DNA of 63,993 nt, counting the filler, from Asterionella formosa (taxonomy: Eukaryota), in the NCBI GenBank assembly GCA_002256025.1. It is 6 parts of 6 records of this genome, joined end to end, with 100 filler letters (N's around TTAATTAATTAA, not from the genome) between each part and the next. Parts side by side here need not be neighbours in the genome. Positions count along the whole stretch, not along the records: positions 32,359 to 43,026 come from NKIB01009269.1; 5 more parts are not named here. One strand, 5' to 3'. The notes under the pieces were generated by a model that searched no databases, was not told where the DNA came from, and saw only the letters and a program-made list of their open reading frames with translations. The translations under genes and the position numbers were made by a program. Below are positions 11,448 through 57,215 of the stretch, piece after piece. Within the stretch, counting starts at the first letter, position 1; every line of letters starts with the position of its first letter.

Positions 11448-11451
11448 TTAA

Positions 11452-21497: not shown

Positions 21498-21597
21498 NNN
21501 NNNNNNNNNNNNNNNNNNNNNNNNNNNNNNNNNNNNNNNNNTTAATTAATTAANNNNNNNNNNNNNNNNNNNNNNNNNNNNNNNNNNNNNNNNNNNN

Positions 21598-22262: not shown

Positions 22263-23996
22263 CCTGGTACCTGGTACCTTGGTTGTTCCAGCCTCCAGGT
22301 GCTGCAGAAAGGAGATTTGAAGAATCCACTATCCTCCTCAGCACGACGATGCATGATCGTTCTTTGCCTCAGCGCGCGTAGCCAGGAACTGAGATACTAT
22401 CTTATACTGGGCGCGCTCTGATAATAAAAAGTTATTACATCATGTGTGAATTATAACACAAATTATATTGGCGATTGACTACATAAAAACATCGTCATGC
22501 TCTGATAATCAAGATATTTTGAGTTCCATAATTTCACCAGTATCAGTCACTGACCAGCATGTCGGCTTTCCTCTCCTCATCTCATGATGACAAAGATGAT
22601 AACATGAGTGAACTTAAAAAAAGAAACGGAGACATAGAAATTTCAGCTTTTCTCAAGAAGCAAGTCTTTGATCATCAAATCAGGCCAACAGAACTTTCAC
22701 AACAAGGTATTGCTCTCCAGCCAAGAGCGACTTTTCACTCCTAAACAAAGACAGTCAGAGGAACATGCATCGTTTGTTTGCCCATGCTATGTACTGAGCC
22801 CAACCCATTCCTGCTTTTCAACAAGAAGTTCTTATCAATCCCCATAGGAATGGAGGTTAAATCAATCAAGTTTTCGATGAAATAAAAAATCAATCTCATC
22901 AAAGGCAAGAGCGATTGACAGCACGCCCAACTTATTCCCGACTTTCAACGACAAGATTGTATCAATTCTTCCCATGGGGATGGAGGTGAATTCAATCCAG
23001 TCTTGATGACATTGAAAATCAATTTCAACAGCTTCGAGAGAAATTGGCAGCAAATCCAAATGTATTGCAGCTTGTAGATGGAGATGATCATGAGGTTCCA
23101 GCGGAGAAATTCAGTGGACTGCGTTTTGTCTTTTTTGGTAAGAGCAATCCATTTCGGGTATGAACAAGCAAGTCTTGATATATTACGGGAAAGTATATGT
23201 AGTCATTCATGACTAAACATCTTCTTATATAATGCACTGTAGGAGGTACGGTAATCTACATAGGCGTGGGTTCTTCATGTGCGTTGTATACAGTATTCCC
23301 GGTAGCTATGAGAACTTATTTATAGATATTCTGGTATGCAGATTTGTCTAGCAAATAATACAAAGGATGATATTACCGTACCTGGTACCTCGGTGTGCGC
23401 ATAGGTACTGGTAGCATCCTTGACTCCTTCCATTTTCCAGTACCAGGTACTACATGCTGATAAATAAATATGTACTAAGGGTATACAGTTACTGGAGCAC
23501 TTCACATGTACAAACTCGAACATTGCTCTAGCGGGTAGTTTACACATATGTCACATACTTGAAACGTTTAGTAAATAAACATAATTTGTTGTTCATCTTT
23601 TCCTTTATGTAGTCAACTCCTTTTCGACTTAATTGGTACCGGATTTTTTGAGACCCCTCATATGAGATAAAACGATAAGGAGCTGACCATGATGGTTTCA
23701 TTGGATGAATGGCGAAGAGCTCCTCCTTCAATGGAAGCCACTATTCTAACTATAGAGGCTATTACTTTTTTTGATACTATATATTGTTCAAATTTTAACT
23801 TCACTTACATTAAGCACTTTAAGACTACTCATTTGATAGACGGGTAGTCTGTGTTGCGCTTGCTGGCGCCGCCAGCCCTGATGTTCATGTACGTATGTAC
23901 TTACTTACCAGCCCATAATCATCCCAACAAACACAGTGACTTTGGGTGCTGGCGTGCAGGGATCTGTACCGGTTTTCATCATCTGTATGGAAAAAT

Positions 23997-26563: not shown

Positions 26564-26864
26564 TAGAGGCAAGTGAGGAAGATGATCAGATGGAGAAGAA
26601 ATGATGGACTAAGTTGGTCGGAATATTGTTTTGGGGAAAAGGTTTTTATTTCTGGCACCAATATGGCTGCAATAGACTCAAAATGTTCCCCTGTCCTCGA
26701 TTTTTGATCCCTTTTTAATTCTATTGTACATCATAGACTATATCCATATGGCTATATTGTATTTCATCATGATATACTACATCAACATAAACGCTTATAA
26801 TTTGTGATTTATGATTTAAAATAATATAATATATTACAGTGACGTGAGTATTCATGCTAAAAAA

Positions 26865-27100
26865 GGGAATGACTTAGTGGCTTAGCACATTGCCTTTGAT
26901 CTGAGGTTGTGTGATTTGATTCCCGCATTTTTTTGAGAAGCAATTGTTGGGTTCGACTCCCACGCTCCTTACCACCCAGAACGGTCTTACCTGGTGTTCA
27001 CGAAATATTGGCTTGCCCCCCTGCAAGCAGCTTGTACTGTCTTTTAGGCGGTATGACTTTCCCTTAATGCTGCAGCTAAGACAATCACCTTTCTTGAAGC
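26865..27100 (+). repeat. tRNA-headed dispersed repeat, family A, copy 2
   Basis: GGGAATGACTTAGTGGCTTAGCAC...ATTCCCGCATTTTTTTGAGAAGCAATTG..GGTTCGACTCCCA..., homologous to the reverse complement of 345-573. Confidence 0.7.
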
Positions 27101-30100
27101 AAAGGTGGATGGGGATTCACCTAAGCTAATAAAGTTAGGGTATCACAGGTCTTGTTGGCAGGTAACACAAAATGAAAGACTTGCCTAGAAATAGGGGAGT
27201 ACAAATGGGCTATAAAAGATATTAAACTTTATTTGATATTGTGCTGTACATGTAAGATATTAACAGTGTGTTCGATATATTCAAATACTTAACATTACAT
27301 ATTGATATATAATGCAAATTTTCATGCATATATACATGGCTAAATTTTATTTAGAGTCATGAGTACATGTTCATTCAAATGCACACTACCACTTAGTTTC
27401 TCAGATTTATATATGGAGTAAATATGTAGGTACTTGTATTGTTGCATTGTTTAAGTTGTTAACTAGCTACTTATTACGGCCCAAAGGTTGCTGTCGACGC
27501 GAAATCGCGAAAAATGGAAATTTGCATGCTTGCTCTATTGAGCTGGCATCGTCTTTTCTACACGTGCACATGTATGTGGACAAAAATAATAACATTCTTC
27601 CCATAGAATTAATTTTGTATAGTTTACTGTGTGTAGAACGTCATTCTGCTTTCGAATACACTATGCGTCAGAAGAATTTGGTGATGATACAAGTGCAAAA
27701 AGCATACTACATCACGCTAAAAAGGTGAAGGTATATGAAAAGAATTTCTGTAGTATGAATGAAGTAAAAATAATCACGGTTTGGGGGGATAATATACTCA
27801 TGTATGGATAGAAAAATATGCACTGTATGCCATCACAATCCAACAATCTTAATGACTTTGAAAAATTAGATCTTCATGGCTTTACACTGAATCAAAACTG
27901 ATTACTTATTTGTAGAATAGAGTGCATCGTGTAACAGACACTTTGTACTTGCATCAGGTTTCGATTGTAATATATCTTGAATATTTTTTGTCAGAAGATG
28001 GAGTAAATAGTGGTGGCACACAGTTTTTAAGCGGTACTTGAAATGAAAGAACAACAAACAGATCAACAGTTCATTACTGCTACAGACCAGATCTTTGATG
28101 CTGTATAAGAATAAAGAACAGTGGTAGCTGGTACTCTAGATAAACAAACAATTCATTTTGTATGTACCAGGTACTGTTATACCATGATACACGGGGAAGG
28201 CAAGTGTTAATTCAGTATTCCTATATGTAATTGTGTACCAGGGTACTAACTAAAAACTGAGAGTCATCCTTATTTCTTTTTTTACCGAGAGTCATTCATA
28301 AACAGGGTAATCACATGTTTTGGGACAAATATTGGAGATACGTTGATTCTGTTTCAGAAAAAGTTGTTCTTTGGCATGTATGGAAGAGCAATGTTTATAT
28401 TGGTAAGTTGAGCTTTCATGGCCATTCTCGAGATAAATAGATTGAAAGATAGCTGTTACAAAAATGTGGGTCAAATCTTATTACCCTATTGAGGCAGCAA
28501 TGCATTTTTGACACTTAGATCACATTTCAGCTAATTTAATTATTTAGCAACTCTTTGTTAAAATTATTTAGTGACTTTCATTTCTATATTTGTTGACTTT
28601 GATTGATCATCAATGTCACATGGAGTACTGTTGCTCTGTCCTTTTCACCATGCATTGATTCATGGCAGCAATAATTTTACCGGTATGTCCACACTGACAG
28701 CAGAATCTCACTGGTGTATAATTATATGTTTTGCTAGTAGGCACCTGATGGAGTCAGGTCTGTACTAGGTATGGAATCCTGAGGTATGTATGTTTACTTC
28801 TGTTAGTACTTAACTGAAAACATTGAATAGGGTTAGGGATAAACACATGACCTGCGGTGTCAACGTAGGTCCAAGTTAAATTTGCTTGACAATGACTGCG
28901 TCGGGATATTCGTCCATTATAAATATCCGGGTATATTCATGTACATATGTACTGTGCCAGTATTGACAATTAATTCTACCCCCAATACTACCATTTTTTG
29001 TCGTAGTGAAAGCTAGTGCACTAGTTAACTGTCATGATGCACGTACAAAGCATGCACTGTGTGTGAGTGGGCGGTGCCACCGTTGCTGGTACCACTTACC
29101 AGGTGCCTGTTACCAGGGTTAACAGGGGCGATGCTGTTACAATGCATGAAGTACCAGGTACCAGTACCCTCCCTGTACCTGGTACTACGGTATGTACCAG
29201 GTACCAGTCTGGTGTTTATACCGGGTAAGAAGCAGGCAAGAAATAACAAGGTACAGTACATTGAAAATGAAATTTGAATTTAATATAATAAGTATTTATG
29301 TTATTATTTAGTAGTATATGCATTTATCTAGCTTAACACGGCTGTAGTTGTGGATGCCCACCACCACTGCAACCTTTCAACATTTGGTTGACGAGAATGT
29401 GATTAACAATCTTATCCTGACCATATGTCTCATAGATTTAATGCAGGGCTACTACATGTGCCATGTAAGCAACCACTCAAACTAGCTAGAGTCGCCACTG
29501 CATCCCAGACAACCTTGCACTGCCAATAGCAGATGCATATTTCCTCATCCTGCTCCCTGCCCTGCCCTGCTGCTTGTAAATAGTAGCCTTTCTGGTTTTT
29601 TGTTCAGTGATTCCAACTTCCCATTCTTACAAAAGAACAAATATAGTTTTGGTGCCTTGGAAGGTTACTTTCATTATCAGGATCCACATCCATGTTTGCT
29701 TGTTTGTCCGCAATACCTGCTTGATTGTTGGTTTTTTGGTTCCTAGAGCAAGCTGTGTGACATGCTGGACCTATGGTGGTACATTGCTTGGCTGGGTAGC
29801 CTACACATAAGGCTATTTAAATTGTTACAACAAACATAGCAAATGTTGACTATTCCACAAGCTCTACTAAAGTAGAACTTCAGCTAGCTCAAGAATGGAT
29901 CTAACATATAGGGATAGTGCGGCTATGTAAACCAACCCAGATATAGCTATGGTTCATCAGGTATAGACATGTTCTACTAACATTTAGCCTAGTACAAGGC
30001 ATAATCACACATTTCAGAACACTTATTACAATGTTTGAATTCGAAGTAGAATATCATGATACAGTGATTTCCTTATGGTTAAACGTTCACCTCTACGAAG

Positions 30101-32258: not shown

Positions 32259-32358
32259 NNNNNNNNNNNNNNNNNNNNNNNNNNNNNNNNNNNNNNNNNN
32301 NNTTAATTAATTAANNNNNNNNNNNNNNNNNNNNNNNNNNNNNNNNNNNNNNNNNNNN

Positions 32359-32726
32359 TATAGAATTACGTGAACAAAAATTTAAGGCAATGTGAACTGA
32401 ATTACAGAATTAATTGAAGTATTTCAAATAATTATGTGAAGTATTTCAAATAATTATGTGAAGTATTTCAAATAATTATGTGAAGTATTTCAAATACTTA
32501 TGTGAAGTATTTCAAATAATTATGTGAAGGTGATCACGTAATATAGTGATGATCAGGAATGCATGCATGATACTCTGATCAAATAATTAAAGTGATGTAT
32601 TCAGATAATACATAGATATCTATTCAAGTAAGCATTTTGATGTATTCAACTAATTCATGTGATCCATTCAAAATCAACTAGGCTTATTTACGTGATGGTC
32701 ACTTCACGTAATACGCGGCTTAGATG
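32359..32726. mobile_element. hAT-like element end, second copy, with 22-bp array
   Basis: Near-identical to 1-322; ends CGCGGCTTAGATG. Confidence 0.75.
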
Positions 32727-33149
32727 CAGCCATACTTGAACCACATGTATTAGATGTACTGTACCGGTACCTGGTAGGTAAAATAAGTACTACCGGTAGT
32801 TTCATCATTCATCGTCATTAACCAAGATTATGTACTACTGGTACCAGGTACCCTGGTACTCCGTCACTCCGGTATTGGTTTATATATTGGTATGTGCCTT
32901 TGAGTGTAGAGTAATATGCCTTTTGGGGATAGAGTAATATTAAATCTACATACCGCAACACAGATTCAACATAAAACGGATAAAAAATGTCATGAGAATT
33001 CATTTAGGGATACTCCTGATTTATATCTGTGTTTAGGCGTTGAGAAAAATTATGTCTACATTCAGCAACGGCCGTAGACATAGCACAATCGTTTAAATAT
33101 CATTTTTATTTGTTTCGATGGAACTCTGTCTATCTGGCGCCGACTCCTA

Positions 33150-33419: not shown

Positions 33420-33508
33420 GGAAAATGATATTTCGTCCCCCTAACCCTAACCCTCCTAGACTCTTCCAAGGTAGGGGTTCGGGTTAGGGGCACGAAAAAT
33501 CATTTTCC
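33420..33508. repeat. Short hairpin element containing telomere-type hexamers
   Basis: GGAAAATGATATTTCGTCCCCCTAACCCTAACCC ... GGGTTCGGGTTAGGGGCACGAAAAATCATTTTCC. Confidence 0.65.
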
Positions 33509-33549: not shown

Positions 33550-33710
33550 TGCCGATTTCGACATCAGGTATGGCATACAAACGGATTCTGAATTCCGTCC
33601 TGTGGTACTGTTGTGTGTAGAATCTTTTGCAGTCGTAGCTATGTAGCCTGTTCGTATCTGACCTACGTAAATGTCAATGTGTCCGGTAAAACTGAAATGC
33701 AACTCAATTG
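33550..33710. repeat. Dispersed repeat, also present as two tandem units at 53425-53748
   Basis: Shared CAGGTATGGCATA..AACGGATTCTG.ATTCCGTCCTGTG...GTAGCCTGTTC...GGTAAAACTGAAATGCAACTCA. Confidence 0.8.
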
Positions 33711-34119: not shown

Positions 34120-34765
34120 GCAAGCCAATCATATCGACATACGTTAACACTACATATGTGAACAAGTAAAAAATGGAACAATTACTAAGAAGGCTGACGA
34201 ACAAGTCGAAAACGGAACAATTATGAATGACTAGCTACGTCAACACAGAAAAGAATCCTGCTGATGTCTTGACTAAAAATGTCGTGGAAAAAATATGAAC
34301 AAGCATGGATATGCGATCCAAAATGGGATGATGGATTGTTGGAACAAGGAGAGTGTGAAAGTGAGCTCATCTACATAGTTATGACTAATATTCAAATGAG
34401 TCGTCTTAGTCGAATGAGTCGACTTTGATGTACCAAGCTCTCATCAACCACATGTTATTACTCAGACTACAATGAGCCAGACAATATAAGCTATTCAGAT
34501 GACCAATAGTTTGAATTAAGTGATCAATGGCTATAAAGCTATGATCAGTAAGTTTGAGAGAGACATCGGTCTATCAATGAATGTATGTTTCTAGAAATGC
34601 AAACAGCATTTGGAGAATAGTTTGTTTGATTATTCAAACAAACAACCTAAACAAGTTTAGTAACTCACAATACGAATATAGAAACAAAGAGAAACAAACA
34701 TCTCTATCTATATAGCCTTAATTGTCTAACGATAAATCCTATCTACAAGAGGTAATACTTTAACA
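34120..34765 (+). mobile_element. Decayed Copia remnant: RNase H end, PPT and LTR (34354-34765)
   Basis: HIDIR*HYICEQV and YVNTEKNPADVLTKNV; purine tract AAGGAGAG; LTR TGTGAAAGT...ACTTTAACA. Confidence 0.7.
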
Positions 34766-35013
34766 TGTTGTAGCCTTCCCCAGAACTCCAATGGTTGTTA
34801 TCCACTGCCACTTCGAACCCTTTATCAAGGGACCCGATATGCACCACGCCATATATTTTATTACACCGAATGAGATGTTATATCCAGCATTATTGATCAC
34901 ATGGATCAGCCCATAATTATGATATTTTGATGATAATACCGGGTTGTATGTAGCGTTATTCTTTCTTTTGAACACATTTTCACATTCATCCGTCGTACAT
35001 CAGCCATAGTACA

Positions 35014-36399
35014 ATGCGAGTACCTGAACAAGTCCTTCTAATCACCTTGTGGGCGCTCGCTTCTGAGTCCGCGTCTTCTTTCGCGCCTCAAAAGTGTCAT
35101 CGGAAAACAGAGACGGCGGCATCAGCACTCTTTTCTCAATCAGACAGCGAAACGCAGAGGAGCGCCCTTTTCTTCCGCCAGGCCAAAAGCGCCTTGCAAG
35201 GAACATTCACTGCCTTTATCCTGTCTGCCTCCCTCGGACTAGGATCTCCAGCTCTTGCATCCGACTATGGATCGCTATCGGAAGAACAAAAGACCGTCGC
35301 GGAAGCCTGGCGCCTCGTAGACAACTCCTTCATCGACCGGACATTCAACGATCAAGATTGGTTCCAACTCCGCCAGACGAATGTCAAACGCAAGTACAAA
35401 TCCATGAATGAGGCTCAGGACGCCATTGCTGATATGCTGGCGACTCTTGGAGACAAGTACACTCGCTACTTGTCACCTTCCAAGTACCAATCCTTGGTGG
35501 ACAGTGCCACTGGGACACTGGCCGGAGTTGGAGTCGAAATCGCGACCAATAAGGAGGGGCGAATCATGGCGTCGGACATTGAACCAAATTCTCCAGCGGC
35601 GGCTGCAGGTATCATGCCCAAAGATGTCTTTGTGGAAGTGGACGGAACTAGATTTGATGTCATGTCGACGCCAGACGACGTGGCCTTGAAACTTCGTGGA
35701 CCAGTGGGAAGCAAAGTAGGTGTCGTCATGGAACGCGATGGCAAGACGTTGGATTTCATTGTCACAAGGCAAGCTCTCAAGATTACCTCTGTTAGATCTT
35801 ACTTGACGGAAAAGAGCGGTGTTAACGGAAAGATTGGAGTCATTCGGATTAAGAGCTTTTCCGGAACGACAGCCGACACGGTCAAGGCGGAATTGGCGGA
35901 ATTACAGAAAAAGGGCGCCAAGAATATTGTCTTGGACCTGAGAGGCAATCCTGGTGGTTTGCTACCAGGTGGGGTGGATACCGCAGCCTTGTTCTTGGAT
36001 GCTAACACTCCAGTGGTTTTCGTTGCAGACAAAAAGGGAGTGGTTGATTCACAGGCGACACTATCTACTGGCGTGGACTTGGACGATCCTTTGGTCTTGG
36101 TTGTAGACGGCAATACGGCGTCGGCAGCCGAAGTATTTGCGGCAGCCTTGCAAGAAAACGGTCGTGCTACACTTGTTGGGGAGCAAACCTTTGGAAAGGC
36201 TATTGTCCAGACTGTGAGACCACTTGCGAATGACAACGGCGGAGTGGCCATAACTGTGGCACGCTACGAAACTCCCAAACACAACAATATAAACAAGAAA
36301 GGCATTCCAGTGGATATTCCAACCAGTGTTGACTGTCCCAAGGATGATGTTTCGGCGTGTCTGCCTTCCAACGCATTCAAGAAGCCGGCATCGGCGTAA
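35014..36399 (+). CDS. ctpA: C-terminal processing peptidase (S41; PSII D1-processing family), plastid/thylakoid-targeted
   Basis: ASSFAP bipartite signal, lumenal ALA site, PDZ domain, DLRGNPGG, TASAAE, TFGK..VQ. Confidence 0.92.
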   Translation: MRVPEQVLLITLWALASESASSFAPQKCHRKTETAASALFSQSDSETQRSALFFRQAKSALQGTFTAFILSASLGLGSPALASDYGSLSEEQKTVAEAWRLVDNSFIDRTFNDQDWFQLRQTNVKRKYKSMNEAQDAIADMLATLGDKYTRYLSPSKYQSLVDSATGTLAGVGVEIATNKEGRIMASDIEPNSPAAAAGIMPKDVFVEVDGTRFDVMSTPDDVALKLRGPVGSKVGVVMERDGKTLDFIVTRQALKITSVRSYLTEKSGVNGKIGVIRIKSFSGTTADTVKAELAELQKKGAKNIVLDLRGNPGGLLPGGVDTAALFLDANTPVVFVADKKGVVDSQATLSTGVDLDDPLVLVVDGNTASAAEVFAAALQENGRATLVGEQTFGKAIVQTVRPLANDNGGVAITVARYETPKHNNINKKGIPVDIPTSVDCPKDDVSACLPSNAFKKPASA

Positions 36400-36506
36400 T
36401 GAGCTACCACTATCGCTATCCCTCACGACAATGCAGCTATCGCAGTGTAGATTTTTAGCAACGCTATAATTTAAGACCTTTTGAACTCCATGACTGGTAG
36501 CTGCCT

Positions 36507-38186
36507 TTAAGATGCTTCTCTGTTTGTTGGCTCAAACTTAGCCACTTTAAACGCAGGTTCCTCGTCATCGTAATCGCCTTCGTTATCACCCTCAACCTCG
36601 TATTCGCCATCCTCATGTGGCTTCTTTTGCACACTCTCGTTAAGCACTCTATAGCTACTTTCTCTCGCAAAAATAAACTCCATGTTGTACAAGTACGTGA
36701 TGAAATTCGATTGTTCCGCTTCTTCCTTGCCAATATGTTTCAAAATGTAATCATCTCTAAAGGCCTTGCGCCTTTGCATTGCGTCTGATTCTGGCTGTTG
36801 CATCCAGTCTAAATCGGGCATGTCTTGATTTGCTTTGTGTTCATTGTATCCTGAATAGTCGCTCATTTCTAAAAATAATCCCTGCGCAGGTGCCAAGCCC
36901 GTCTTCATGGTGACAAGGTCCAGTGCCTCATCTAACTGTTGGGGTGTCGCCGCACCTCGCGCTACATCGACGGCCACACTAACCATTTTTCTAATTTGAT
37001 TGAACAAGAAAGATTGTCCTGTCACTCGGGTCGGGATCCATTCTGTCCCATCCTCCATGAGAACTGGGGGATCGACGACGAAATCTAAAATGTACCTCTT
37101 GGCCGTCTTGTCCCCAACCTTCATATTCTTGGTAAAGTTGTGATAAGGTTTGGTACCTTGAAACTGTAACAGCGCAGCTTGCAGTCGTTCCAAATTCAGT
37201 GGAGTTGCTTTATACGCATACAGTATGGGTTTCACTTTCTGTATCTCTTCGCTCGTCAGTGGTACTTTGGCATCTTGTCCATTCCTCGGATATCCCATAT
37301 CCTTGAACACTGTTTGCAGCTCATCTCTTGGATACAACAAAAAGGATGGAATCATGTACTGGTAAACAACTTTAGTCCTCTGACTCTTTGCACAAAAGGT
37401 GCGCGTCGTTCGCCTGATATCCAAAATGGTAATGTCGTCTGGCAACTCTGCATTGATACGCGCCCGTGCTTGGTCTTCCGTGTCCTCCCCCAATTCCAGT
37501 TTGACCGAACAAACTTGAGCCAGGGCATGAACCCCCTTGTCCGTACGGGCACTTGAATTCCAACCGTACTTGTGCGGGTATCCAAAGTTGGTGGGCAAAA
37601 TAAGTTTTGAACGGTACAGAGCCAATTCCAATTGTGCTTGAATACTGTTTGCGTTTGGATTAATTTGAAAGCCGGAGTATTTGGATCCGCAAAAGGCAAT
37701 GAGCATGACTACTTTCTTTTTGCCTCTGGGTGTGTCATTTTGTTTTGTGGTTGAGCTGATGGGTTCTTCTTTATCGTCCTTGATGTCTTCAACGGTGATT
37801 CCAAAGAGGTCCTGCATTTCCTTGGTTCGAAAAGACCCTGCCGAGGGCTGATCAGATTCGCTGCTTATGCGCCGACTGCCCTGAGTGGCCAACCTCTCTG
37901 AATTCTTTTCTCTGTATTCCTTTTTCTGTTGGCGCTTGTTACCCCATGCTTTACGCTTTGCATCTCTATTCGCAGCTTGTTCCATGGCTCTGCTTGTGTA
38001 ATCGGAATTGTTAGAATACTTGTTATGAATATTATTGTTGTAGTTGTTGTTAGTGGTAGTGGTAGTTGTAATTGTGGCAACTAAGCGAATTGGCAGCGGT
38101 GCAGTGCGATGGTTGATGTGAGGAGTAAACAACAAGAGGCGAGGGAGAGTTGTTGTCTTCCCTATCGTCGCTATCAGACTCATCAT
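36507..38186 (-). CDS. PUS1: tRNA pseudouridine synthase, PUS1/TruA family
   Basis: YSGFQIN, SARTDKGVHA, YHNFT, GQSFLFNQIRKM, APAQGLFL. Confidence 0.9.
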   Translation of the reverse strand: MMSLIATIGKTTTLPRLLLFTPHINHRTAPLPIRLVATITTTTTTNNNYNNNIHNKYSNNSDYTSRAMEQAANRDAKRKAWGNKRQQKKEYREKNSERLATQGSRRISSESDQPSAGSFRTKEMQDLFGITVEDIKDDKEEPISSTTKQNDTPRGKKKVVMLIAFCGSKYSGFQINPNANSIQAQLELALYRSKLILPTNFGYPHKYGWNSSARTDKGVHALAQVCSVKLELGEDTEDQARARINAELPDDITILDIRRTTRTFCAKSQRTKVVYQYMIPSFLLYPRDELQTVFKDMGYPRNGQDAKVPLTSEEIQKVKPILYAYKATPLNLERLQAALLQFQGTKPYHNFTKNMKVGDKTAKRYILDFVVDPPVLMEDGTEWIPTRVTGQSFLFNQIRKMVSVAVDVARGAATPQQLDEALDLVTMKTGLAPAQGLFLEMSDYSGYNEHKANQDMPDLDWMQQPESDAMQRRKAFRDDYILKHIGKEEAEQSNFITYLYNMEFIFARESSYRVLNESVQKKPHEDGEYEVEGDNEGDYDDEEPAFKVAKFEPTNREAS

Positions 38187-38214
38187 GGTATGAAGAATAT
38201 GTTAACAAATGCCA

Positions 38215-38520
38215 ACCACCGGTACCTGTATCGGTACTCCGGTACCATGGTACCTGGTACCAGTACCTGGTACCAGGCGGTACCACGGGTAAAAAATAAT
38301 ATTACCAGCAGAATGACCTCGCAACATGCACATAGGCCGTGTTTACCGTACCCTGGTACCTGGTACCAGGTACCTAGTACCTGGTACTCATGAAACACAA
38401 TCATGATACCGTAACTACACACTACCAGGGTACCAGGTACCAGATAACCTGTACTGGTGTCGCTCGATGCTATCCAAATGGTTAGTGGTGGTAGAGTACC
38501 TGTTACCAGGTACCCGGTAG
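38215..38520. other. Densest cluster of nested TA-CC(W)GG-TA motifs, directly upstream of PUS1
   Basis: e.g. GGTACCATGGTACCTGGTACCAGTACCTGGTACCAGG and TACCCTGGTACCTGGTACCAGGTACCTAGTACCTGGTA. Confidence 0.85.
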
Positions 38521-39237
38521 AGAAACGTACAACGATGCATTGTCATAAGATAGCTACATGATGCATCGCTACATAGGCAGTAGCAATGATTCGATTAACT
38601 ATCATGCGAGCAGTGGAATCGCTTAGCCATTCCGATTTGTTAGCTAATCTACGTGGTAGGTCGAGTAACTGGTACCTGGCACCTGGTAGCACATGTTACT
38701 ATACCAGCATCTTCAAATGCGTACATACATGTGTAGAGTCTACGACCTGTGGAGTCAATTTATACCTACAATGTACCAGTACATAGCTACCGGTACTTGA
38801 ATCACAGAGCTATTTATTGGTTATGTACGAGGTATCATGCATACCGTATACCGGTATACGTAGGGTGCAACAAACATTGAATGATTAACCTTGGGGTCTT
38901 GGGTATTTTTTATTTTTAGACCTCCATGATCATGATCAGTTGAGTTGGAATGCAGAAGTGTTGCATAAGAATATGTATACCGATAGTGAATGTATTGATA
39001 GTAAGCAATGATAATATACAAGAACAGAAGCAATCGGGGTGATGATCGTCACTTCCTCTTACCACATTGAACAAATCTTATTAGATAGAATATCGACTAC
39101 CTGGTACCAGGTACCCCTTCCTGGTATGTACCGATAGTCTAGACCACCAGTAGTTAGTTTGAGTACTTGGTACCAGCAAGTGTATTATTATTTGGGTCAT
39201 CAAAATCATTCTGCATTATACTTAATAGGTAAATGGA

Positions 39238-39690
39238 CTAGTTTAATGGATCATATTCCTTCGCTTCCTTCATCATGGCGTCATAAATATCTTGTGCTTC
39301 AAAGCCACTCTTGGGAGTCTTGATCAAGACCACAGACGTGGGTCTCTTGGTCGATGCTGCCGCTCCCAAATCTTGTTTGGACGGGACGAATAAATACGGC
39401 ACATTCTTCTCTTCCAGCAATAGTGGCAAATGTGAGACCACATCCAATGGAAAGACATCCCCCGCCAAGACACAAAGCCCTGTGTCACCCTTGCGCAACC
39501 CCTTGACAACTTCTTTCACCCCTCGTCGGACATTTTTTGCAGACGATGCCTTCTTTACGAGCTTGTGTAGTTTCTTGGTGGATTTCTTGGAAGCGAGCGG
39601 ATGGGCGATCACGTTGACGGCCTTGCAGCGGTCTTCGTATGTAATGGAAGGTTTGGAGGATGATTTCGTGTTTTCTTCAGCGTCGGACAT
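39238..39690 (-). CDS. NHP2: H/ACA snoRNP subunit NHP2 (L7Ae family)
   Basis: IAHPLA..K, RRGVKEVVK, LAGDVFPLDVVSHLP, PSKQDLGAAASTKRPTS. Start taken at MSDAEE. Confidence 0.93.
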   Translation of the reverse strand: MSDAEENTKSSSKPSITYEDRCKAVNVIAHPLASKKSTKKLHKLVKKASSAKNVRRGVKEVVKGLRKGDTGLCVLAGDVFPLDVVSHLPLLLEEKNVPYLFVPSKQDLGAAASTKRPTSVVLIKTPKSGFEAQDIYDAMMKEAKEYDPLN

Positions 39691-40478
39691 GGTGTATATG
39701 TGATCTGCGGGTGTAGCAGTTCGTTGTATTGAATTGATGATTGCGAAGCAAAAGACAATATAGAGAAGGAGGACGAGCACGAAGTAATAATAAAGTTGGT
39801 AATTTTTATTTCATGTACCGGTAGTTAGTACTGCACCATCTACCGGTATTTGATGAGATGGATGGGTACGTAAATATACCGGTGTGCAATACTAAATAAG
39901 AATAGAAGGAGTACCTGGCACCTATTTATATGTACCACTCGGAGTACCGGTAAGGCAAACCAAACGATACATTGGTACATATCATACCGGTTTTGTGTAT
40001 CACAAGCATGACATCGTTAGGAAAATACGAGCACTAAAGCAATACACTTCACTTTCATTTAGACTATTTTTATAGCCTGGGATAGGGGTGGCGGCGGTGA
40101 TCGATGGATTATGGGGCTCTTGCCGTCAACCGGTGAAAAAATCAACAATCGTCCTCGCATAACAACAGTACCAGGTACCCCTGGTACCAGTACTACCTGG
40201 TTCTCCTACTCCGTACCAGGTAGGTAATCATCGCTCAAACAGGACTCGTCCGACGAAATACGCACTCTTTGTGCACACTTCGACCCGATCGCTATCTTAG
40301 AGCTCCCCGGCAGTATGGTACCAGGGGTACCTCGTACCATGTAACTGGAAGAGTACCAGGTACCTGGTCCATAGTACCTGGTACCTGTTACTGGTAGCAG
40401 GTACTCTTCGTCACGACATGAATTTATTCTTCGACATAAAAGTACACAAATATTCCCTCGATCAGCATCTCCATCACC

Positions 40479-41303
40479 ATGATTCTTCGTTGTTGCAACA
40501 GCAGAAGGATACAAACGCCCTCCTTTTGGAAAAAGTCTATCTATTGTTGGACCGCTGCTGTTGCCACATCCACCATTTCAACAACAGCATTCGTTTGTCA
40601 TCCTTCGACTCGTTCCTTCTCCACAAAGCAACAACCTAGGCATAACATTCATCGTTCTTCCTCCGTCCACCTTACATCCGAAACCATTGAAAAAGAGACA
40701 CTCTCATGGGTCAAACGCGTCGTGATTGGTTGGAACCTTTGTCCATTTGCCGATTTTCCACTCAAGAATAATCTACTTTCTATTAAAGTCGTTCGCGGCG
40801 ACGATGATGCAGCAGTATTGGCCGCCATTACGGCTGAACTATTCTCAAGAGCCGATAGTCCTGGGACTACTCTGGTGGTGGCACCAGAATGCCACCCCAA
40901 TGACTTTATTTCCTATTTAGATGTTGTGGCAGATGCAGAGGAACTTTTGGAAAGCGACGATACCATGGACCTTCAAATTGCACCCTTTCATCCACTTTTT
41001 GAATTTGCTGATTCAAAGGGAATTAGTACATACACAAATCGATCGCCCTACCCAATGTTTCATTTATTGAGAGAAGTGGAAGTAGCAAAGGCCGTGGATA
41101 AATTGAACGGCGATGCAAGTATAGTGTGGCAACGAAATATTGACTTATTGGAGGATTTGGAAAAGACCTTGGATGATGGGGAGAAAGGAGTTGTTGCTCT
41201 TGTCACGGGGAACAGAACGGAAGAACAAGAGACTGTGCTACAACAAGTCTTGAAGCGACATGGGCCTAATAAGATTCCTCCCGGTGGGGCTACGGACCCT
41301 TAG
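40479..41303 (+). CDS. DUF1415-like protein with an organelle-targeting extension
   Basis: WVKRVVIGWNLCPFA, QIAPFHP, YTNRSPYPMFHLLRE motifs. Confidence 0.85.
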   Translation: MILRCCNSRRIQTPSFWKKSIYCWTAAVATSTISTTAFVCHPSTRSFSTKQQPRHNIHRSSSVHLTSETIEKETLSWVKRVVIGWNLCPFADFPLKNNLLSIKVVRGDDDAAVLAAITAELFSRADSPGTTLVVAPECHPNDFISYLDVVADAEELLESDDTMDLQIAPFHPLFEFADSKGISTYTNRSPYPMFHLLREVEVAKAVDKLNGDASIVWQRNIDLLEDLEKTLDDGEKGVVALVTGNRTEEQETVLQQVLKRHGPNKIPPGGATDP

Positions 41304-41526
41304 CAAGTGATGAAGGAGTGAGTGGCTATAACGAAATAAATTACTGTTCATTAATTGGAATGTGTAGAAATGAAAGATGATGACGAGAACCATTTCGTTC
41401 TTATTGAAATAGACTCAAGTGAGGTTAAGAATAAACCACTCAAAGCGTTGATTTCTTATTGTCATGTAGTTAGAAGATTAATGGGTATGTAGCGCTCACT
41501 GTCTTCTTTTTCTTTTTGGGCATGTT

Positions 41527-42267
41527 TCATTTTTGCTCTGCTTGTTGGATGGGATAGTCTATTTTGCTGGATTCGTCTGGACCCCTGGCCTCCGTATGGT
41601 CACCAGATATCTCTTCCAGTACTTGCTTAAGAGGTTTCTGCATGGCATTGGGAACAGCCTTAGCGCAGGCTGGACGTGATGTACCACCTGATTCATCATA
41701 TATTTCTTTTCCCAATGTATTGTACATTGCCATCATTTCAGAATTATCAAATCCAGAAAAGTACAAAATAGGGCATGGCTCGGAACTTATTGATACTAAT
41801 GGTGCCACAATGACACCTTCGGAGATTACTTGCTGCAAGACATCAGCCACCGTAAGTTCTAACAATGTTGACGTTGCCGCTTCTTGAATCCTTGCTAACG
41901 CAACTCCCTTGGCACTAGCCTTGGGTGCAACATCTCCCAACATGTCGTAAATTTCCTCATTGTCAACTCCCGGAGGAATTTGGTACAGGATCAATACAGG
42001 ACCTGGTCCAAAGGCATCCTCAGTCTCGTCTAATTTGATAAAGTCTTGTCCTCGGTCTTGTAAAAAATTTGAAATGGAATCCAAAAACCCCATCGGCCTG
42101 GATACTGTCGTTGTCGTGTGCTGACGGGTGCTGGCTGATGCGTGATAATGGTGATGACCAACTACAAAAGCGCTAATGATGATGCCCTTATTGTTGTTCC
42201 AGGTCATTATCATTGGCGCAAACAACATTAAAAATAACATTGGAGATTTCGAGGTTATAGTCGTCAT
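41527..42267 (-). CDS. Plastid-targeted DUF3783-like protein
   Basis: ISAFVV signal; C-terminal ILYFSG...ACAKAVPNAMQKPLKQVLEEISGDH. Confidence 0.75.
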   Translation of the reverse strand: MTTITSKSPMLFLMLFAPMIMTWNNNKGIIISAFVVGHHHYHASASTRQHTTTTVSRPMGFLDSISNFLQDRGQDFIKLDETEDAFGPGPVLILYQIPPGVDNEEIYDMLGDVAPKASAKGVALARIQEAATSTLLELTVADVLQQVISEGVIVAPLVSISSEPCPILYFSGFDNSEMMAMYNTLGKEIYDESGGTSRPACAKAVPNAMQKPLKQVLEEISGDHTEARGPDESSKIDYPIQQAEQK

Positions 42268-42599
42268 TCAAGGAGTAGGTCCGATATCAGCAAATGCTGG
42301 ACACAGAATAAATGTCCCGGTAATACACAGGTTGAGTGTCAAACAATTATTTTTAAGAATTGAAATCGCATACCGTACTGGTACTATAGACCAGGTAACA
42401 TATACATGCACGTCAAGTATTGAAGTGTTCAGTTCTGGTACTGGTACATCCGAAAATTGTGCCTAAAATCGTACAACGGAAATAATTTTGGGGTGTTAAA
42501 TTTTATTTCCTAACTATCCAGAACTTCAAATATATTACAGAGCGCGTCGTGCAAGGGCTGGCATGTTTCCGTAGAGGCTTGGCTTACGCTCTTGACCCT

Positions 42600-42731
42600 T
42601 GCTGCTTAAGTTAAAAATAAATAAGAATTTGATGCTCAAGTTAAAAGTAAATTAGCGTTTGGTGCTTAAGTTATAAGTAAATAGTGTTAGGTGCTTAAGT
42701 TGAAATTAAAATAGCACGCATTTGGTGCTTA
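42600..42731. repeat. ~30-bp tandem repeat, ~4.5 copies
   Basis: Repeated TGCTTAAGTTRAARTAAAT units. Confidence 0.75.
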
Positions 42732-42734
42732 TTA

Positions 42735-43026
42735 GGCCGTTGCTAACGGTGGACCAAAACCCAAACCAAACAGTGTTTTGGTTTCGGTAACCCTAAAAAA
42801 CGATGCTAACGGGAGTGAAAAACCCAACGCAAACGCATTACGTTTAGGGGATTCCGTGCCCATATCCCAATAAGTTACCCAAACGCATTACGTTTAGGTT
42901 TTTTTTTCCCAAAGTTACCTAAACGTAGGATTCCATATGGACTACTTTGAATGTAGTCACTAGAAACCCAATTATTATCATCGTAGAATCAGTACATATA
43001 GGACGCATCATTTACCAGTATATCAT
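42735..43026. mobile_element. Possible PIF/Harbinger-like element end, cut by the scaffold end
   Basis: TTA|GGCCGTTGCTAACG start; repeated GCTAACGG and AAACGCATTACGTTTAGG subterminal motifs. No partner TIR is visible. Confidence 0.4.
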
Positions 43027-44099
43027 NNNNNNNNNNNNNNNNNNNNNNNNNNNNNNNNNNNNNNNNNNNNTTAATTAATTAANNNNNNNNNNNNNNNNNN
43101 NNNNNNNNNNNNNNNNNNNNNNNNNNTGGAAAGTAGCTACTAGCTAGGAAAAAAGGCATGTTGGGATTGCATGCTGCTTTGATGATTTGCGTTTTTGTTG
43201 CTGCTTGATGATGATGGGTGATGCAATGAATTTAAGCTATCATCATGTTACTTGCCCATATAGTAAGCAATCACGCAAACATGTATCTACTACACAGCTA
43301 TCAGTTCATGTGGTAGACTCCTACAATCAGCAACTACAGTACATACGGTTAGGATCACACCAGAATGAGGAGAATTTTTGTCCCAACAGATTTTTGGTTG
43401 GACATTTGGTGGTGTCAGGTTAACTACTACTATGATGCCAGCACCATCACTTGCACACCAACGAAATGAGGAGGCAGGTGCAAACATGATGCTCCACATA
43501 ATGTTGTCTAGAGCCAATACTATACAGCTTGATGTATGGTGTCCTGAACAAGCTTCCACCTACTAGCTAGTATGACTGGGCAAGTCAGCATTTCATGAGG
43601 ACTAAAGCTAATGAACAGGGATGCAACTATATATATGATGCCCAAGAAAAATGTGATATGTATGAAGCTTGTGATAAGCCTTCTTGCTGTTATTTGCAAA
43701 GAGTGCGGGTCTTGAAGGGGAAATATTGTTTGTGTGATTGGAATTTTTTAAAACAGTACATCAGGTTGTTGTGGAAAACAATGATATCCTCATGCACTGT
43801 ATATATTTAAATTATGTATAAGCTTATCTGATGATAGAATACACACAATGTACGATATAAAGTGTAGCTTTGAATTATGAAAGTGTTCAACTGTATATAT
43901 ATTTATATATTTCAAATTTTTATCAATGTATACATGGTTAATACCTTTGAAATCATGTTTAACGATTCCTTGTCATGCAGCCGTACCGGTACACATTCTG
44001 GAATGAAAGATCACATCAGCCACATCAAAAGGAAAACTGAAGTAACGATAAAACACAATGATACGACACCTAGCGGCTTAGAGAAGGATTGAAAATGGA

Positions 44100-45840: not shown

Positions 45841-46095
45841 TTAAACTTTTGTGTTTGCCTTTTCCTTGAGTTTCTCAATAATTGCGGTACGCTCTTCTGC
45901 CGTACTATTCTTCATGTCTGACAATAACGTCTTATAGAATGGATGATCCGTCACACAATCAGTCACTTGAAAGCGTAACCCGCGGCAACGCATCGGAGCA
46001 CGGCCGTAGGGAGTTGTTGCCATGCATTCCTTGTAGAGATCAGTTATTTCAGGACAGCGCTTGCTGGCAAGTTCCATGTCTTGTTCAGTCAGCAT
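45841..46095 (-). CDS. Small twin-CX9C (CHCH-type) protein, putative mitochondrial intermembrane space
   Basis: 84 aa from MLTEQ; C-PEITDLYKE-C ... C-RGLRFQVTD-C. Confidence 0.6.
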   Translation of the reverse strand: MLTEQDMELASKRCPEITDLYKECMATTPYGRAPMRCRGLRFQVTDCVTDHPFYKTLLSDMKNSTAEERTAIIEKLKEKANTKV

Positions 46096-46682
46096 GATGG
46101 ATGGGCAAGGGAAGAAAGTGTTTGTGGGTGGGTGTGTTTGTTGTACAGAAAGCAACCGCAGAGACAGTAAAATATAAAATATGTATCATTTCTATTACAT
46201 ACCGGTCTAGAATAAATAGCAAAATCTTGACAGGGGCAGGCAACAAGGAATGGGCTGCTGCTGCTTGGCTGATGAACCGATGATGCTGCTGGTGTTGCTC
46301 AATACTAACCGGCGGAGCGGACTTCGGATAAAATGTGACATATTAGTGTCTTTATGGCTAGTAATGCAAAAAAATAATCCGTCCGTAAATGACTTCACAG
46401 ACATACCGGTGCTGGTAGTAGAGCAGGCATTACCTGGTACTCCTACCAGGTACTGTATGAAGTACCCGTGAGCATCAATCAATCACATGCTCATGGCTCG
46501 CCATGACAAGGGGGATCATTTAATTTTTGTTAGCTATTAAATTTGTTTCCAGTTTTTGTTTTACTTTTATGTATGTTTGCAAAATAGAAATTCTCTCAAG
46601 CCTCTCTCACATATACCAGCAGCGCCTTGAGTCCTTCTTGTGAACAGATCAACCAATCGTAGCTTTGTAGTCAACAAATACA

Positions 46683-47968: not shown

Positions 47969-49600
47969 TTTTATTCCAATCAGCAATGACGTGTTGGATG
48001 CTGTTTTCGAAATTCGCAGACTGTCATTGCTATAAAAAGGACGAAGAAGGAAAGTAATCCATTGCAAAGTGATGAACATTGTGGTGGTTATGAATTTTTA
48101 GTATGTATTATTATAGTCCAAAGGGGACCAAAAACTACTGGTAGACCACTAAATGTAGTTTTACCAGAACCTGAATGCTAGTAACATATCATTTAGCTTT
48201 CAGGTGATGCATTTGGCATTGCCAATGGCCATAATATCCAAATGTTGTTATTGAATACCTGTAACAGCATGTATAGTCATCGCTGCCATTTTCACGGGAG
48301 TCTAGGTGTCAGGAGATATGCATAATTCTCCAACCAAACTGAATGGTGGGAGTTGCTAGTAGCTGTATTAGGTGATGAAGCCTGGCATTGTTCACAGGTT
48401 GGCCTTCCAGTTGTAGGACCAATAATGAATGATGCATCCTCCTTCGAACTCACTCTTTGATAGTGAATAGCAGTCTGACACAATTTAGTTTGAACGCACT
48501 GATTAGGTCAGTTCAATGACCATTCATGTACATCCAAATGTGCTTGCTCAATATGAGCTGTGGTGTTCTTTGCTTGTGTGTTTTACCCATGGATCTGACC
48601 TATGCAGGAGGATGGACTGTATATTTGGTCTTCGGGGTTTTCTCCTTCCTTCCAAAGGACCCAGTCAACCATTCCCAAATTTATCAAAAATCTTTGTAGG
48701 ATTTATTTCATTACTGCAATCATGATCTTGTCATTCTCATCAAAGACTTGGGCTTGGCCAAGGTACTTGGCAGATTGCTACATTTTCACCTGGTAGCNNN
48801 NNNNNNNNNNNNNNNNNNNNNNNNNNNNNNNNNNNNNNNNNNNNNNNNNNNNNNNNNNNNNNNNNNNNNNNNNNNNNNNNNNNNNNNNNNNNNNNNNNNN
48901 NNNNNNNNNNNNNNNNNNNNNNNNNNNNNNNNNNNNNNNNNNNNNNNNNNNNNNNNNNNNNNNNNNNNNNNNNNNNNNNNNNNNNNNNNNNNNNNNNNNN
49001 NNNNNNNNNNNNNNNNNNNNNNNNNNNNNNNNNNNNNNNNNNNNNNNNNNNNNNNNNNNNNNNNNNNNNNNNNNNNNNNNNNNNNNNNNNNNNNNNNNNN
49101 NNNNNNNNNNNNNNNNNNNNNNNNNNNNNNNNNNNNNNNNNNNNNNNNNNNNNNNNNNNNNNNNNNNNNNNNNNNNNNNNNNNNNNNNNNNNNNNNNNNN
49201 NNNNNNNNNNNNNNNNNNNNNNNNNNNNNNNNNNNNNNNNNNNNNNNNNNNNNNNNNNNNNNNNNNNNNNNNNNNNNNNNNNNNNNNNNNNNNNNNNNNN
49301 NNNNNNNNNNNNNNNNNNNNNNNNNNNNNNNNNNNNNNNNNNNNNNNNNNNNNNNNNNNNNNNNNNNNNNNNNNNNNNNNNNNNNNNNNNNNTCAGTCCG
49401 CGCGCATAGAAAACAATTCAATGCTATGAAAATCGAGGAACGCACAAGCAACATCAGCCATTCCCAGAATATTTGTAATACCTACAGTCCGGTATGCTAT
49501 TTTTCACACCGTCTTGTCATCATTTGACTCCCTCTCCATATGCCTTATTGTTCTGTTGACCTTGTCCCTTTTCTTCTTCCTTGATCTCCTCTCCATAGCA

Positions 49601-53187: not shown

Positions 53188-53424
53188 GTTTTCGAAGGCT
53201 GTAATGAGAAATGAGGTGTGATTGCATTTCTTGAGAATTATGTGATGATCGCGGAGTGATGTTCATGATAAAAATTGTAATTTACAATGAAGGCAGGAAT
53301 CAAAAAACCTACCGTATGTACCTACCGGTAGTCACATCGTAACTCCAACCCTATCCACATCTTGTATAAAGTGTACTATACTGTAGATGTAAACCGTTTG
53401 AACCGGACAAATCCATGTACGATT

Positions 53425-53748
53425 TCAAACATGCATTGAGTATTTAGAATTTGTTGCTTTTTTCGATTTCAGGTATGGCATATGAACGGATTCTGGATTC
53501 CGTCCTGTGGTACACTCGTGTGTAGAATTCATTGTATGTAGCCTGTTCATATCTCAGCCGAAGTGTCGGGTAAAACTGAAATGCAACTCATACATGCATT
53601 GAGTATTTAGAATTTGTTGCCATTTCTCGACATCAGGAATGGCATACGAACGGATTCTGGATTCCGTCCTGTGTTTCACTCGTGTGTAACATTCATTGTA
53701 TATACTGGTAGCCTGTTCATATCTCACCCGAAGTGAAATGCAACTCAT
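53425..53748. repeat. Two tandem ~165-bp units of a dispersed repeat
   Basis: ACATGCATTGAGTATTTAGAATTTGTTGC at ~53429 and ~53592; homolog at 33550-33710. Confidence 0.85.
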
Positions 53749-54106
53749 ACCAGGTACGGAGTACCTGGTANNNNNNNNNNNNNNNNNNNNNNNNNNNNNN
53801 NNNNNNNNNNNNNNTTAATTAATTAANNNNNNNNNNNNNNNNNNNNNNNNNNNNNNNNNNNNNNNNNNNNCTTGTCTGTAGAATTCAACGACAAAAGTTG
53901 TCCAGAAATTATTCTGGCATCAGGACTCAAGAATTACAATGATGACGACGAGAAGAAAAGAAAGGCGTTTCACAACAAGCACGTGCGACACAACAAAAAG
54001 ACACTCTTCCCTCAAACAAGAACCAAATCAACAAATCTCGTCAACACAAAATAATAACTTGTTCAATTCCTTGCGGAGTACAACCAAATCAACGAACAAA
54101 TCAAAC

Positions 54107-57100: not shown

Positions 57101-57215
57101 TTGCATTCAGTACCAGCGCACAAAGAGGCCAAAGACTATTGAATTGGTGGAAGAAATGGGTCGACTTGTAAGTCAAACATCTCCTATTGATGAAAGTCCC
57201 GAAGAAAACTTTTGA
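54107..57215 (+). CDS. Cys/His-motif, ~11 armadillo repeats and IRAK/Pelle-like (TKL) protein kinase; intron 56351-56432
   Basis: N-terminal CPHH..IQLR.K...G.W......CPRC; 43/44-aa ARM repeats; LGEGAFGAVYKG, AVK, HRDIKSANI, DCGLAK, GTLGY, DVYSFG. GTGAGC...CAG intron is in frame. An upstream in-frame ATG at 53939 is possible. Confidence 0.85.

Follow-up and report, generated by a model that had tools for sequence, protein, structure and literature searches.

Excision footprints are textbook lesions of cut-and-paste transposition and are treated as rare, isolated scars; the plant Osmar and Stowaway elements furnish further footprints of the Tc1/mariner type for comparison. A different kind of short repeated motif is known from Drosophila housekeeping promoters, where the palindromic DRE/DREF motif TATCGATA occurs in homotypic clusters. 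Here we analyze a 63,993-nt stretch of DNA (64 kb; hereafter the window, to which all window counts refer) from the diatom Asterionella formosa (GenBank assembly GCA_002256025.1), in which short words bounded on both sides by TA recur, singly or in arrays, as at positions 38215–38520 in the 5' flank of a gene for a PUS1-type pseudouridine synthase. We take the arrays to be excision scars of a TA-targeting transposon, with a probability of roughly one half. For Sleeping Beauty and mariner, the pertinent passages of one source describe nicks placed 3 nt inside the element, by which the donor flanks acquire 3' overhangs of 3 nt, and footprints that, after end joining, correspond to those overhangs (PMC7827188). 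In the relevant part of another, in vivo footprints of mariner-like elements (MLE) fit a 5' break 2–3 nt inside the element, and the oligonucleotide for the Mos1 5' repeat reads ...TA CCAGGTGTACAAG... (PMC2642840). Stowaway MITEs (miniature inverted-repeat transposable elements), mobilised by mariner-like transposases, have TA as their target and prefer gene-proximal open chromatin, according to excerpts of two further sources (PMC5663088, PMC6881990).

TA-bounded words in the window

The window contains 90 canonical units (about 1.4 per kb). TACCWGGTA occurs 38 times, compared with 0.38 on average (at most 2) in 100 dinucleotide-preserving shuffles, and TACCGGTA occurs 22 times (shuffle mean 0.41, maximum 3). 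TACCAGTA and TACTGGTA together are found 24 times versus 1.69 expected; TACCATGGTA, the full CCATGG form, occurs once, and neither TACCTGGTACCTGGTA nor TACCAGGTACCAGGTA occurs in the window. The most enriched hexamer of the window is GGTACC, with 61 copies against 9.1 expected from base composition, 60 of them in the 41.8 kb of non-coding DNA and one in the 21.2 kb of coding sequence. Between neighbouring TAs, the commonest strings of four bases are CCGG (22), CTGG (14) and CCAG (10), and those of five are CCAGG and CCTGG (19 each). This is exactly the set of words proposed in a first-pass annotation of the same DNA, and all 14 clusters of chained words that it named are present. Among the strings of six bases are CCCTGG (3), CCAGGG (2) and CCATGG (1). 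Strings that can be assembled from the start of CCA(GG) and the end of (CC)TGG are markedly favored: CCAG and CTGG amount to 24, compared to 4 for CCTG and CAGG, which have the same composition and cannot be so formed (each expected 1.69), and the formable CCCTGG and CCAGGG total 5 versus 0 for the non-formable CCTGGG and CCCAGG.

Inside the arrays, the descriptions "TA-x-TA" and "GGTACC plus spacer" denote the same sequence; outside them the two diverge. TACC(W)GGTA stands alone 67 times, a 57–106-fold excess, compared with 17 GGTACC that share no TA with a unit; the TA-bounded unit is therefore the primary object, which bears out the choice made in the first-pass annotation. There are 75 chains, comprising 67 single units, seven doubles and one chain of four, and adjacent units are identical in none of the 10 pairs, which fits independent events and not slippage.

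The last observation bears on an account that involves no transposon, namely that the arrays are a heptamer micro- or minisatellite, (GGTACCW)n, seeded by GGTACC and grown by slippage or small tandem duplication. Tandem Repeats Finder (TRF) does report period-7 (GGTACCW) arrays at about ten places, and tandem duplication of parts of CTGGTACCAG would, by our derivation, yield the same prefix-plus-suffix spectrum. GGTACC is flanked by T..A in 18 cases, by mixed bases in 15 and by A..T in 3; as separate evidence this bias was discarded, because it fits independent flanks (p = 0.71) and is a corollary of the CCAG/CTGG excess. Set against these points are the predominance of single units, the lack of identical neighbors and the flanks of isolated units, where the (T)GG and CC(A) that a duplicated core would leave are missing (position -2 is G in only 13 of 48). 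The insertions described below add two further objections and leave this account very improbable.

One other TA-bounded word pair stands apart from these units. TACAGTA and TACTGTA, the canonical form of Tc1/Sleeping Beauty-type footprints, total 19 versus 7.95 expected, a slight excess and possibly the mark of a second family that targets TA.

Units gained as six-base insertions at TA

The empty form of every unit was rebuilt and the window was searched for paralogues. In addition, another study supplies an independent contig, X4 (5778 nt at depth 29; divergence from the window about 0.7%), which spans 34591–40331. Only 4 base changes are listed for it in 38215–38520; X4 thus reproduces the arrays of that interval, which are not an assembly artefact.

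Three cases were found in which a TA is opposed to a TA, an insert and a second TA. At 38624–38625 the window has an empty TA where the X4 allele has TACCGGTA, with TACCGG added behind 38623 (CGCT-TA-GCCA in the window versus CGCT-TACCGGTA-GCCA in X4); a second allele at 38623 is not provided by another contig, X6, which does not cover 38195–38685. The second case is a filled TACCAGTA at 556–563, within a short repeat that has an RNA polymerase III (pol III)-like box and a T-run. Its empty paralogue is a plain TA at 26875–26876, and the copy at 26864–27016 is exactly 6 bases shorter at that point. The third is a filled TACTGGTA at 53703–53710, in copy B of a 164-bp tandem repeat, with an empty counterpart (TATGTA) at 53535–53540 in copy A and the same state in a third copy at 33638–33648. 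Copies A and B are 92% identical over 87 bases with no other gap locally and one further 1-base gap in the full alignment. The sequence TATGTAGCC is read both in copy A and in the third, outgroup copy (33571–33670), and since both are empty, the unit in copy B is an insertion.

A duplicated TA around an insert at a site that has a single TA when empty is the hallmark of a footprint; it is seen here, cleanly at 38623 and 556–563. The comparison of TA with TA+insert+TA, proposed in the first-pass annotation as a check, is positive once between strains and twice between paralogues. In none of the three cases is the insert a copy of adjacent sequence, and none lies inside an array or in a motif-rich context. 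Nothing unusual was seen in the remaining 25 indels of the 13 paralogue alignments and, among the 12 allele indels listed of 26 in X4, only that at 38623 is of the TA-x-TA type. In three contexts with no relation to each other, a unit has arisen where a TA already stood, through the insertion of exactly 6 bases. Because a perfect 8-mer arose by a 6-base insertion, point-mutation turnover of a binding site cannot produce it; because CC..GG was inserted beside unrelated sequence, neither can slippage or tandem duplication of GGTACC. For the minisatellite account there is the further difficulty that no change of unit number in 38215–38520 appears among the X4 indels listed (12 of 26). Excision of a TA-targeting cut-and-paste element does produce such insertions.

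The same three cases, together with the fact that no element was identified in the window, are also what might be expected if an undescribed process wrote CC(W)GG+TA at TA sites, for instance breakage by a domesticated transposase or by a nuclease specific for TA, repaired through end joining with nearby arrays as the template. At unrelated sites, including 556, which has no array within tens of bases, the inserted letters do not vary, and such constancy at array-free sites argues against local templating. We know of no precedent for a process of this kind and consider it unlikely.

The copies of the repeat that carries the insertion at 556 (414–563 and 26864–27016) are 83% identical. They contain GGTTCGATTCC, which resembles a pol III B-box, along with a T7 run, and the repeat is possibly a tRNA-derived short interspersed element or a pseudo-tRNA. 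An attempt to polarise the insertion through tRNA structure was abandoned, as neither ARAGORN nor Rfam detects a tRNA in the two copies (best hit tRNA-Sec, E = 1.7).

Placement near genes and the case for excision scars

For the analysis of placement, a 5' flank was defined as up to 600 bp upstream of each of 12 genes taken as real (those with Pfam support and a long unnamed open reading frame (ORF) at 60756). The 5' flanks (5.3 kb) hold 39 units, or 7.3 per kb, compared to 45 units in 32.9 kb of unannotated, gene-poor non-coding DNA (1.37 per kb), 5 units in 3.5 kb of 3' regions (1.44 per kb) and a single unit, at 37357 inside PUS1, in 21.2 kb (21,184 bases) of coding sequence (0.05 per kb). 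At least one unit is present in 8 of 9 5' intervals, and the nearest units lie about 45–250 bp from the start codon or the start of the open frame. The five units of the 3' regions all fall within 38787–39237, which is also far upstream of PUS1, and none lies in the four short spacers between the 3' ends of convergent genes. Coding sequence thus excludes the units, and their density is highest in 5' flanks. The first-pass annotation had held that the chains are absent from coding exons, which holds (1 of 90 units and 1 of 61 GGTACC are coding), and that most lie 5' of start codons. The latter holds for 39 of the 90 units (43%) and for 8 of the 14 listed clusters, which are in 5' flanks of supported genes; it does not hold for the 45 units in gene-poor DNA without annotation. 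The uniform spread over non-coding DNA that would have counted against the annotation is not seen, given 7.3 per kb in 5' flanks versus 1.4 per kb elsewhere. Taken together, its observation is confirmed and its interpretation is partly supported, since TA was found opposed to TA+insert+TA three times and the claim about distribution holds in a weakened form.

Such a distribution suggests an alternative that we regard as possible, though improbable on balance: the words could be binding sites of a transcription factor, or of a general promoter factor, for TACC/GGTA half-sites (the palindromes TACCGGTA, TACCWGGTA and TGGTACCA) gathered in homotypic promoter clusters. Besides the density in 5' flanks compared with coding sequence and 3'-3' spacers, the occupancy of nearly all 5' intervals and the distance of the first units from the start codons, two kinds of evidence are compatible with this idea. 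One is that the sequence preference reaches one base past the TA, with G/C at 50–65%. The other comes from a comparison set consisting of 67 kb from 11 diatom-like loci around PUS1 relatives and 506 kb from 69 non-diatom loci. In the diatom-like loci, TACCGGTA occurs 4 times versus 0.25 expected, TGGTACCA 4 times versus 0.59 and GGTACC 17 times versus 6.1, and no enrichment of the three was found in the 69 non-diatom loci. A mini-array, TACCGGTACCGTACCGGTAC, lies between divergent ORFs in locus L003, and TACTGGTAC precedes an ORF in L006 by 56 bp; two further sites with related words are located between convergent ORFs (L001) and inside a long ORF (L017). The counts are small, and a motif conserved among diatoms would explain them as well as related transposons in other members of the group would.

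Several observations do not agree with a binding site. Ready-made 6-base insertions at TA occurred in repeats that are not promoters (556, 53703) and between strains (38623). The spacing of the half-sites varies (0 and 1 are common, 2 is rare), and 24 forms are truncated. Variants that differ from the 9-mer by one base are enriched to much the same degree at every position, 2.8–5.9-fold (50 observed versus 10.4 expected), as expected from neutral decay and without the position-specific constraint of a recognition sequence. Half of the units are in gene-poor DNA. In the 67 kb of diatom-like loci, TACCWGGTA is absent (0 versus 0.18 expected), and no units were found upstream of the orthologous PUS1 genes in the other diatom-like loci, which indicates that the heavy load is specific to this lineage. 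At the level of titles and abstracts, our searches turned up no account of such arrays, of such a promoter motif, of scar accumulation on a genome scale or of diatom mariner termini, and the strings appear there only as primers and restriction sites.

Excision scars would account for the composition of the units as follows. The source would be a cut-and-paste element of the Tc1/mariner/pogo kind that ends in TA|CCA(GG)...(CC)TGG|TA and duplicates the TA on integration. Excision would cut 2–3 nt inside each end, so that the flanks retain CC(A) and (T)GG, and end joining would generate TA-CCGG-TA, TA-CCWGG-TA or TA-CCAG/CTGG-TA. On this arithmetic CCGG is predicted as 2+2, CCWGG as 3+2 or 2+3, and CCAG/CTGG as 3+1 or 1+3, which are the five commonest strings. 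More generally, a unit would run from one TA to a second, and the 4–5 bases between them (in rare cases 3 or 6) would begin as CCA(GG) does and finish as (CC)TGG does; units would enter the genome as discrete 6–7-base insertions at a pre-existing TA, and chains that read as GGTACC heptamer arrays would be built where the 5' flank of a gene was hit again and again, every hit contributing a TA. The transposon as the agent, its preference for promoter chromatin and the growth of arrays by nested hits are what we infer from these patterns. The formula put forward in the first-pass annotation, in which 1–3 nt of CCA and 1–3 nt of TGG are bracketed by TA, fits the commonest strings and fails to explain why CCATGG is found only once. 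Its suggested likeness to Mos1 is correct for the 5' inverted repeat, which begins TA|CCAGGTG in the relevant part of the published account (PMC2642840).

A number of points weigh against the scar interpretation. No transposase domain was detected in the 61 ORFs scanned in the window, where the sole mobile-element signal is a copia reverse transcriptase (RT) fragment, and pairs of TA|CC...GG|TA with at least 15 of 20 complementary end bases are only array-versus-array matches, a long terminal repeat (LTR) repeat and one weak pair. The search for an element with CCA...TGG ends or for a transposase, as recommended in the first-pass annotation, thus came back empty for the 64-kb window; the missing parent within that length is weak negative evidence, and the agent is hypothetical. 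The scarcity of the full 3+3 scar, CCATGG, differs from what a simple 3-nt stagger predicts. Seventeen GGTACC share no TA with a unit, whereas chance would place about 7.8 copies of that hexamer in the entire window. Outer TAs are preceded by G in 38 of 75 chains and followed by C in 48 of 74, compared with a background of 25–27%; in isolated units the outer base is G/C in 24 of 48 flanks, and position -2, with G in 13 of 48, is unbiased. This G/C preference outside the TA needs either a preference for GTAC targets or decayed neighboring units, as would the unit-free GGTACC. CpG observed/expected is 0.71 in non-coding DNA and 0.86 in 5' flanks, a moderate depletion, and unit variants with a transition at the central CpG of CCGG number 24, versus 5 at the neighboring C/G; since CCAG and CTGG are also the CpG-transition products of CCGG, their excess is not clean evidence. 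The insertion at 53703–53710 is the less clean case, the insert as aligned being ATACTG, equivalent to a change from TA to TA+CTGG+TA plus one adjacent G>A. The peak in 5' flanks (7.3 versus 1.4 per kb in other non-coding DNA) is what a promoter element would show, the mild enrichment of related words in diatom-like loci also fits one and, to our knowledge, a maximum in 5' flanks is not typical of Tc1/mariner.

Candidates for the parent element, or for a longer version of its ends, were pursued and dropped. No common extension follows TACCAG or TACCAGG in the window, and TACCAGGTGCC is only a one-mismatch form of TACCAGGTACC. A MITE was dismissed because the scan found no terminal inverted repeats beyond the array-to-array matches and the LTR repeat. 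Inverted repeats of about 680 bp (19406–20089 and 21598–22268) were examined as a TA-bounded DNA transposon and are LTR-like instead. They are 94% identical, begin with TGTTGAGGGG as LTRs do and flank the copia-type RT fragment (20107–21291), and the right copy directly abuts a GGTACC array (...GGTACCAGGTACCAGG|TGTTG, about 22266).

Excision scars and a promoter motif are compatible readings, as scars could have been co-opted. In a more far-reaching version, which we consider doubtful, an active TA-targeting transposon prefers promoter chromatin, and its scars, by adding TAs, ratchet into arrays that now act as promoter sequence, through nucleosome exclusion or the binding of a transposase-derived factor.

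Individual loci and comparison with known systems

The long ORFs of the window encode ordinary eukaryotic nuclear proteins, identifying it as nuclear DNA of this freshwater pennate diatom. Sequencing runs in which the stretch occurs carry the labels freshwater, lake-water or algae metagenome. Their products include a DOMON protein, a Twinkle-type helicase-primase, an S41 peptidase with a PDZ domain, the PUS1-type pseudouridine synthase, NHP2/L7Ae, DUF1415, DUF3783, Cmc1/CX9C, KAE1/TsaD, SKIP/SNW and PAP2 proteins and an ARM-repeat kinase. The PUS1 gene occupies 36510–38186 on the minus strand, with its ATG at 38186, and the main arrays are in its 5' flank. The nearest named relatives of its product are from the pennate diatoms Asterionellopsis, Nitzschia, Cylindrotheca and Seminavis, at no more than 51% identity, with further relatives at 63–67%. 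A search of metagenome contigs with the PUS1 protein alone retrieved no relative, and so no same-species contig for comparing alleles, and an alignment-based scan retrieved only relatives of at most 48% identity. RNA contigs cover PUS1 at 34998–38297 (X9) and 35011–38159 (X14), NHP2 at 39194–39782 and 39243–39625, DUF1415 at 40512–41376 and DUF3783 at 41720–42283. The first array 5' of PUS1 (38221–38285) falls within an RNA contig, although the contigs do not define transcript ends and stretches outside them carry no weight here.

The interval 38215–38520 contains 11 canonical TA-x-TA units, 12 GGTACC and 19 GTAC, distributed over four arrays. The first (38221–38285) is 35–100 bp upstream of the PUS1 ATG, has GGTACC cores and TRF periods of 7, 13 and 28, and includes the only four-unit chain (38243–38272), TA-CCATGG-TA-CCTGG-TA-CCAG-TA-CCTGG-TA. 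The second (38344–38387) reads TA-CCG-TA-CCCTGG-TA-CCTGG-TA-CCAGG-TA-CC-TA-G-TA-CCTGG-TA and is scored by TRF as 5.1 copies of period 7. The third (38407–38443) consists of TACCGTA followed by TACCAGGGTACCAGGTACCAGA, and the fourth (38497–38519) of TACCTGTTACCAGGTACCCGGTA. Contig depth over 38215–38535, about 100-fold, was rejected as a measure of copy number, because many contigs with unrelated flanks match there (loose-end agreement 0.41) and may include other organisms.

A cluster with TACCTGGTACCAGGTA (39098–39175) follows the NHP2 ORF directly on its 3' side, some 0.9 kb upstream of PUS1; a scan of viral contigs for this sequence gave 4 loci, taken on a rough estimate as no more than chance. 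Nine units cluster at 39816–40405 in the common 5' spacer of NHP2/L7Ae (ATG at 39690, minus strand) and DUF1415 (ORF from 40440, plus strand). At 39954 in this spacer, one X4 (DNA) and one X9 (RNA) contig depart from the window at the same base, right after TACCGGTAAG. Their continuation is identical in both and absent from the window; it could represent a structural variant, another locus or a splice. Seven units at 2791–3202 are upstream of the DOMON gene (3365–5194, plus strand), and a cluster at 8341–8413 is upstream of the Twinkle-type helicase-primase gene (5509–7914, minus strand). The latter array is the center of a long imperfect palindrome (292 bp, 71%; 8252–8523), another of which spans 11448–11997 (565 bp, 87%). 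Two units (42376–42446) precede the DUF3783 gene (41527–42267, minus strand), two (46431–46452) lie between the divergent CX9C/Cmc1-like (45841–46185, minus strand) and KAE1/TsaD (from 46671, plus strand) genes, and four (53323–53770) lie between the divergent PAP2 (minus strand) and ARM-repeat/kinase (plus strand) genes. In gene-poor DNA, an array without an annotated gene nearby is found at 10197–10224, with similar ones at 18974–19044, 23378–23451, 29151–29255 and 32761–32860.

Some other features of the window are recorded here in their own right. A 22-bp tandem repeat (CAAATAATTATGTGAAGTATTT) at 1–127 and 32408–32529 belongs to a segment of about 320 bp present twice, 32 kb apart, with 95% identity (6–322 and 32408–32726), and GGTACC clusters occur a few hundred bp downstream of both copies. 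Summed DNA contig depth reaches about 5900 at 34363–34683 and about 7700 at 42709–43000, versus about 29, marking other dispersed repeats that are distinct from the GGTACC arrays. The region 53882–57215 encodes an ARM-repeat protein with more than 10 tandem 132-bp (44-aa) repeats of about 81% DNA identity, and the next ORF has a protein kinase domain. An interstitial telomere-like CCCTAA is repeated 2.7 times at 33439–33454. Runs of N, which have no biological meaning, comprise paired 44-N runs every ~10.8 kb (10703–10802, 21498–21597, 32259–32358, 43027–43126 and 53771–53870) and a 595-N run at 48798–49392; the unit at 53762 directly abuts an N stretch.

If the arrays are indeed excision scars, such scars would have piled up on a genome scale, with a density near 1.4 units per kb over the window and 7 per kb within 5' flanks, and most of the promoters examined would have been reshaped by them. 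This would constitute a new route by which transposons write promoter sequence without leaving a transposon, and for a group in which chromatin data are scarce the units would offer a proxy, readable from sequence only, of where chromatin was accessible in the past. Should the doubtful version apply, in which the arrays now serve as promoter sequence, they would be a fossil record of accessible chromatin and at the same time a class of transposon-written cis-regulatory DNA. If, on the other hand, the words are transcription factor binding sites, they would represent a previously undescribed and very abundant promoter element of diatoms.

Among known systems, micro- and minisatellites share with the diatom units the period-7 head-to-tail arrays reported by TRF, and differ in that here neighbors are always different, most units stand singly and new ones arise away from arrays. 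Gene-proximal MITEs of the Stowaway type share the TA target and the proximity to genes; the diatom units, however, are 6–7 bp long, far below the size of any MITE, and lack terminal inverted repeats and internal sequence. Clusters of the DRE/DREF type are similar in being short, TA-ended palindromes, several per promoter, a few hundred bp from the start codons of housekeeping genes, whereas the diatom motif has no known factor, is not conserved upstream of an orthologous gene in other diatoms, and shows variable spacing, truncated forms, words that overlap and share TAs, and insertion as a cassette. The footprints of Tc1/mariner elements (Mos1, Sleeping Beauty, Tc1) are alike in that a duplicated TA brackets a few bases readable as the first 2–3 and the last 1–3 nt of an inverted-repeat element, in their heterogeneous sizes, as in end joining, and in the polymorphism of filled and empty sites. 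Unlike those footprints, the diatom units have no known parent element and the full 3+3 form is nearly absent; and while the known footprints are isolated lesions, the units of A. formosa are chained, are the most over-represented words of non-coding DNA and are concentrated in the 5' flanks of genes.

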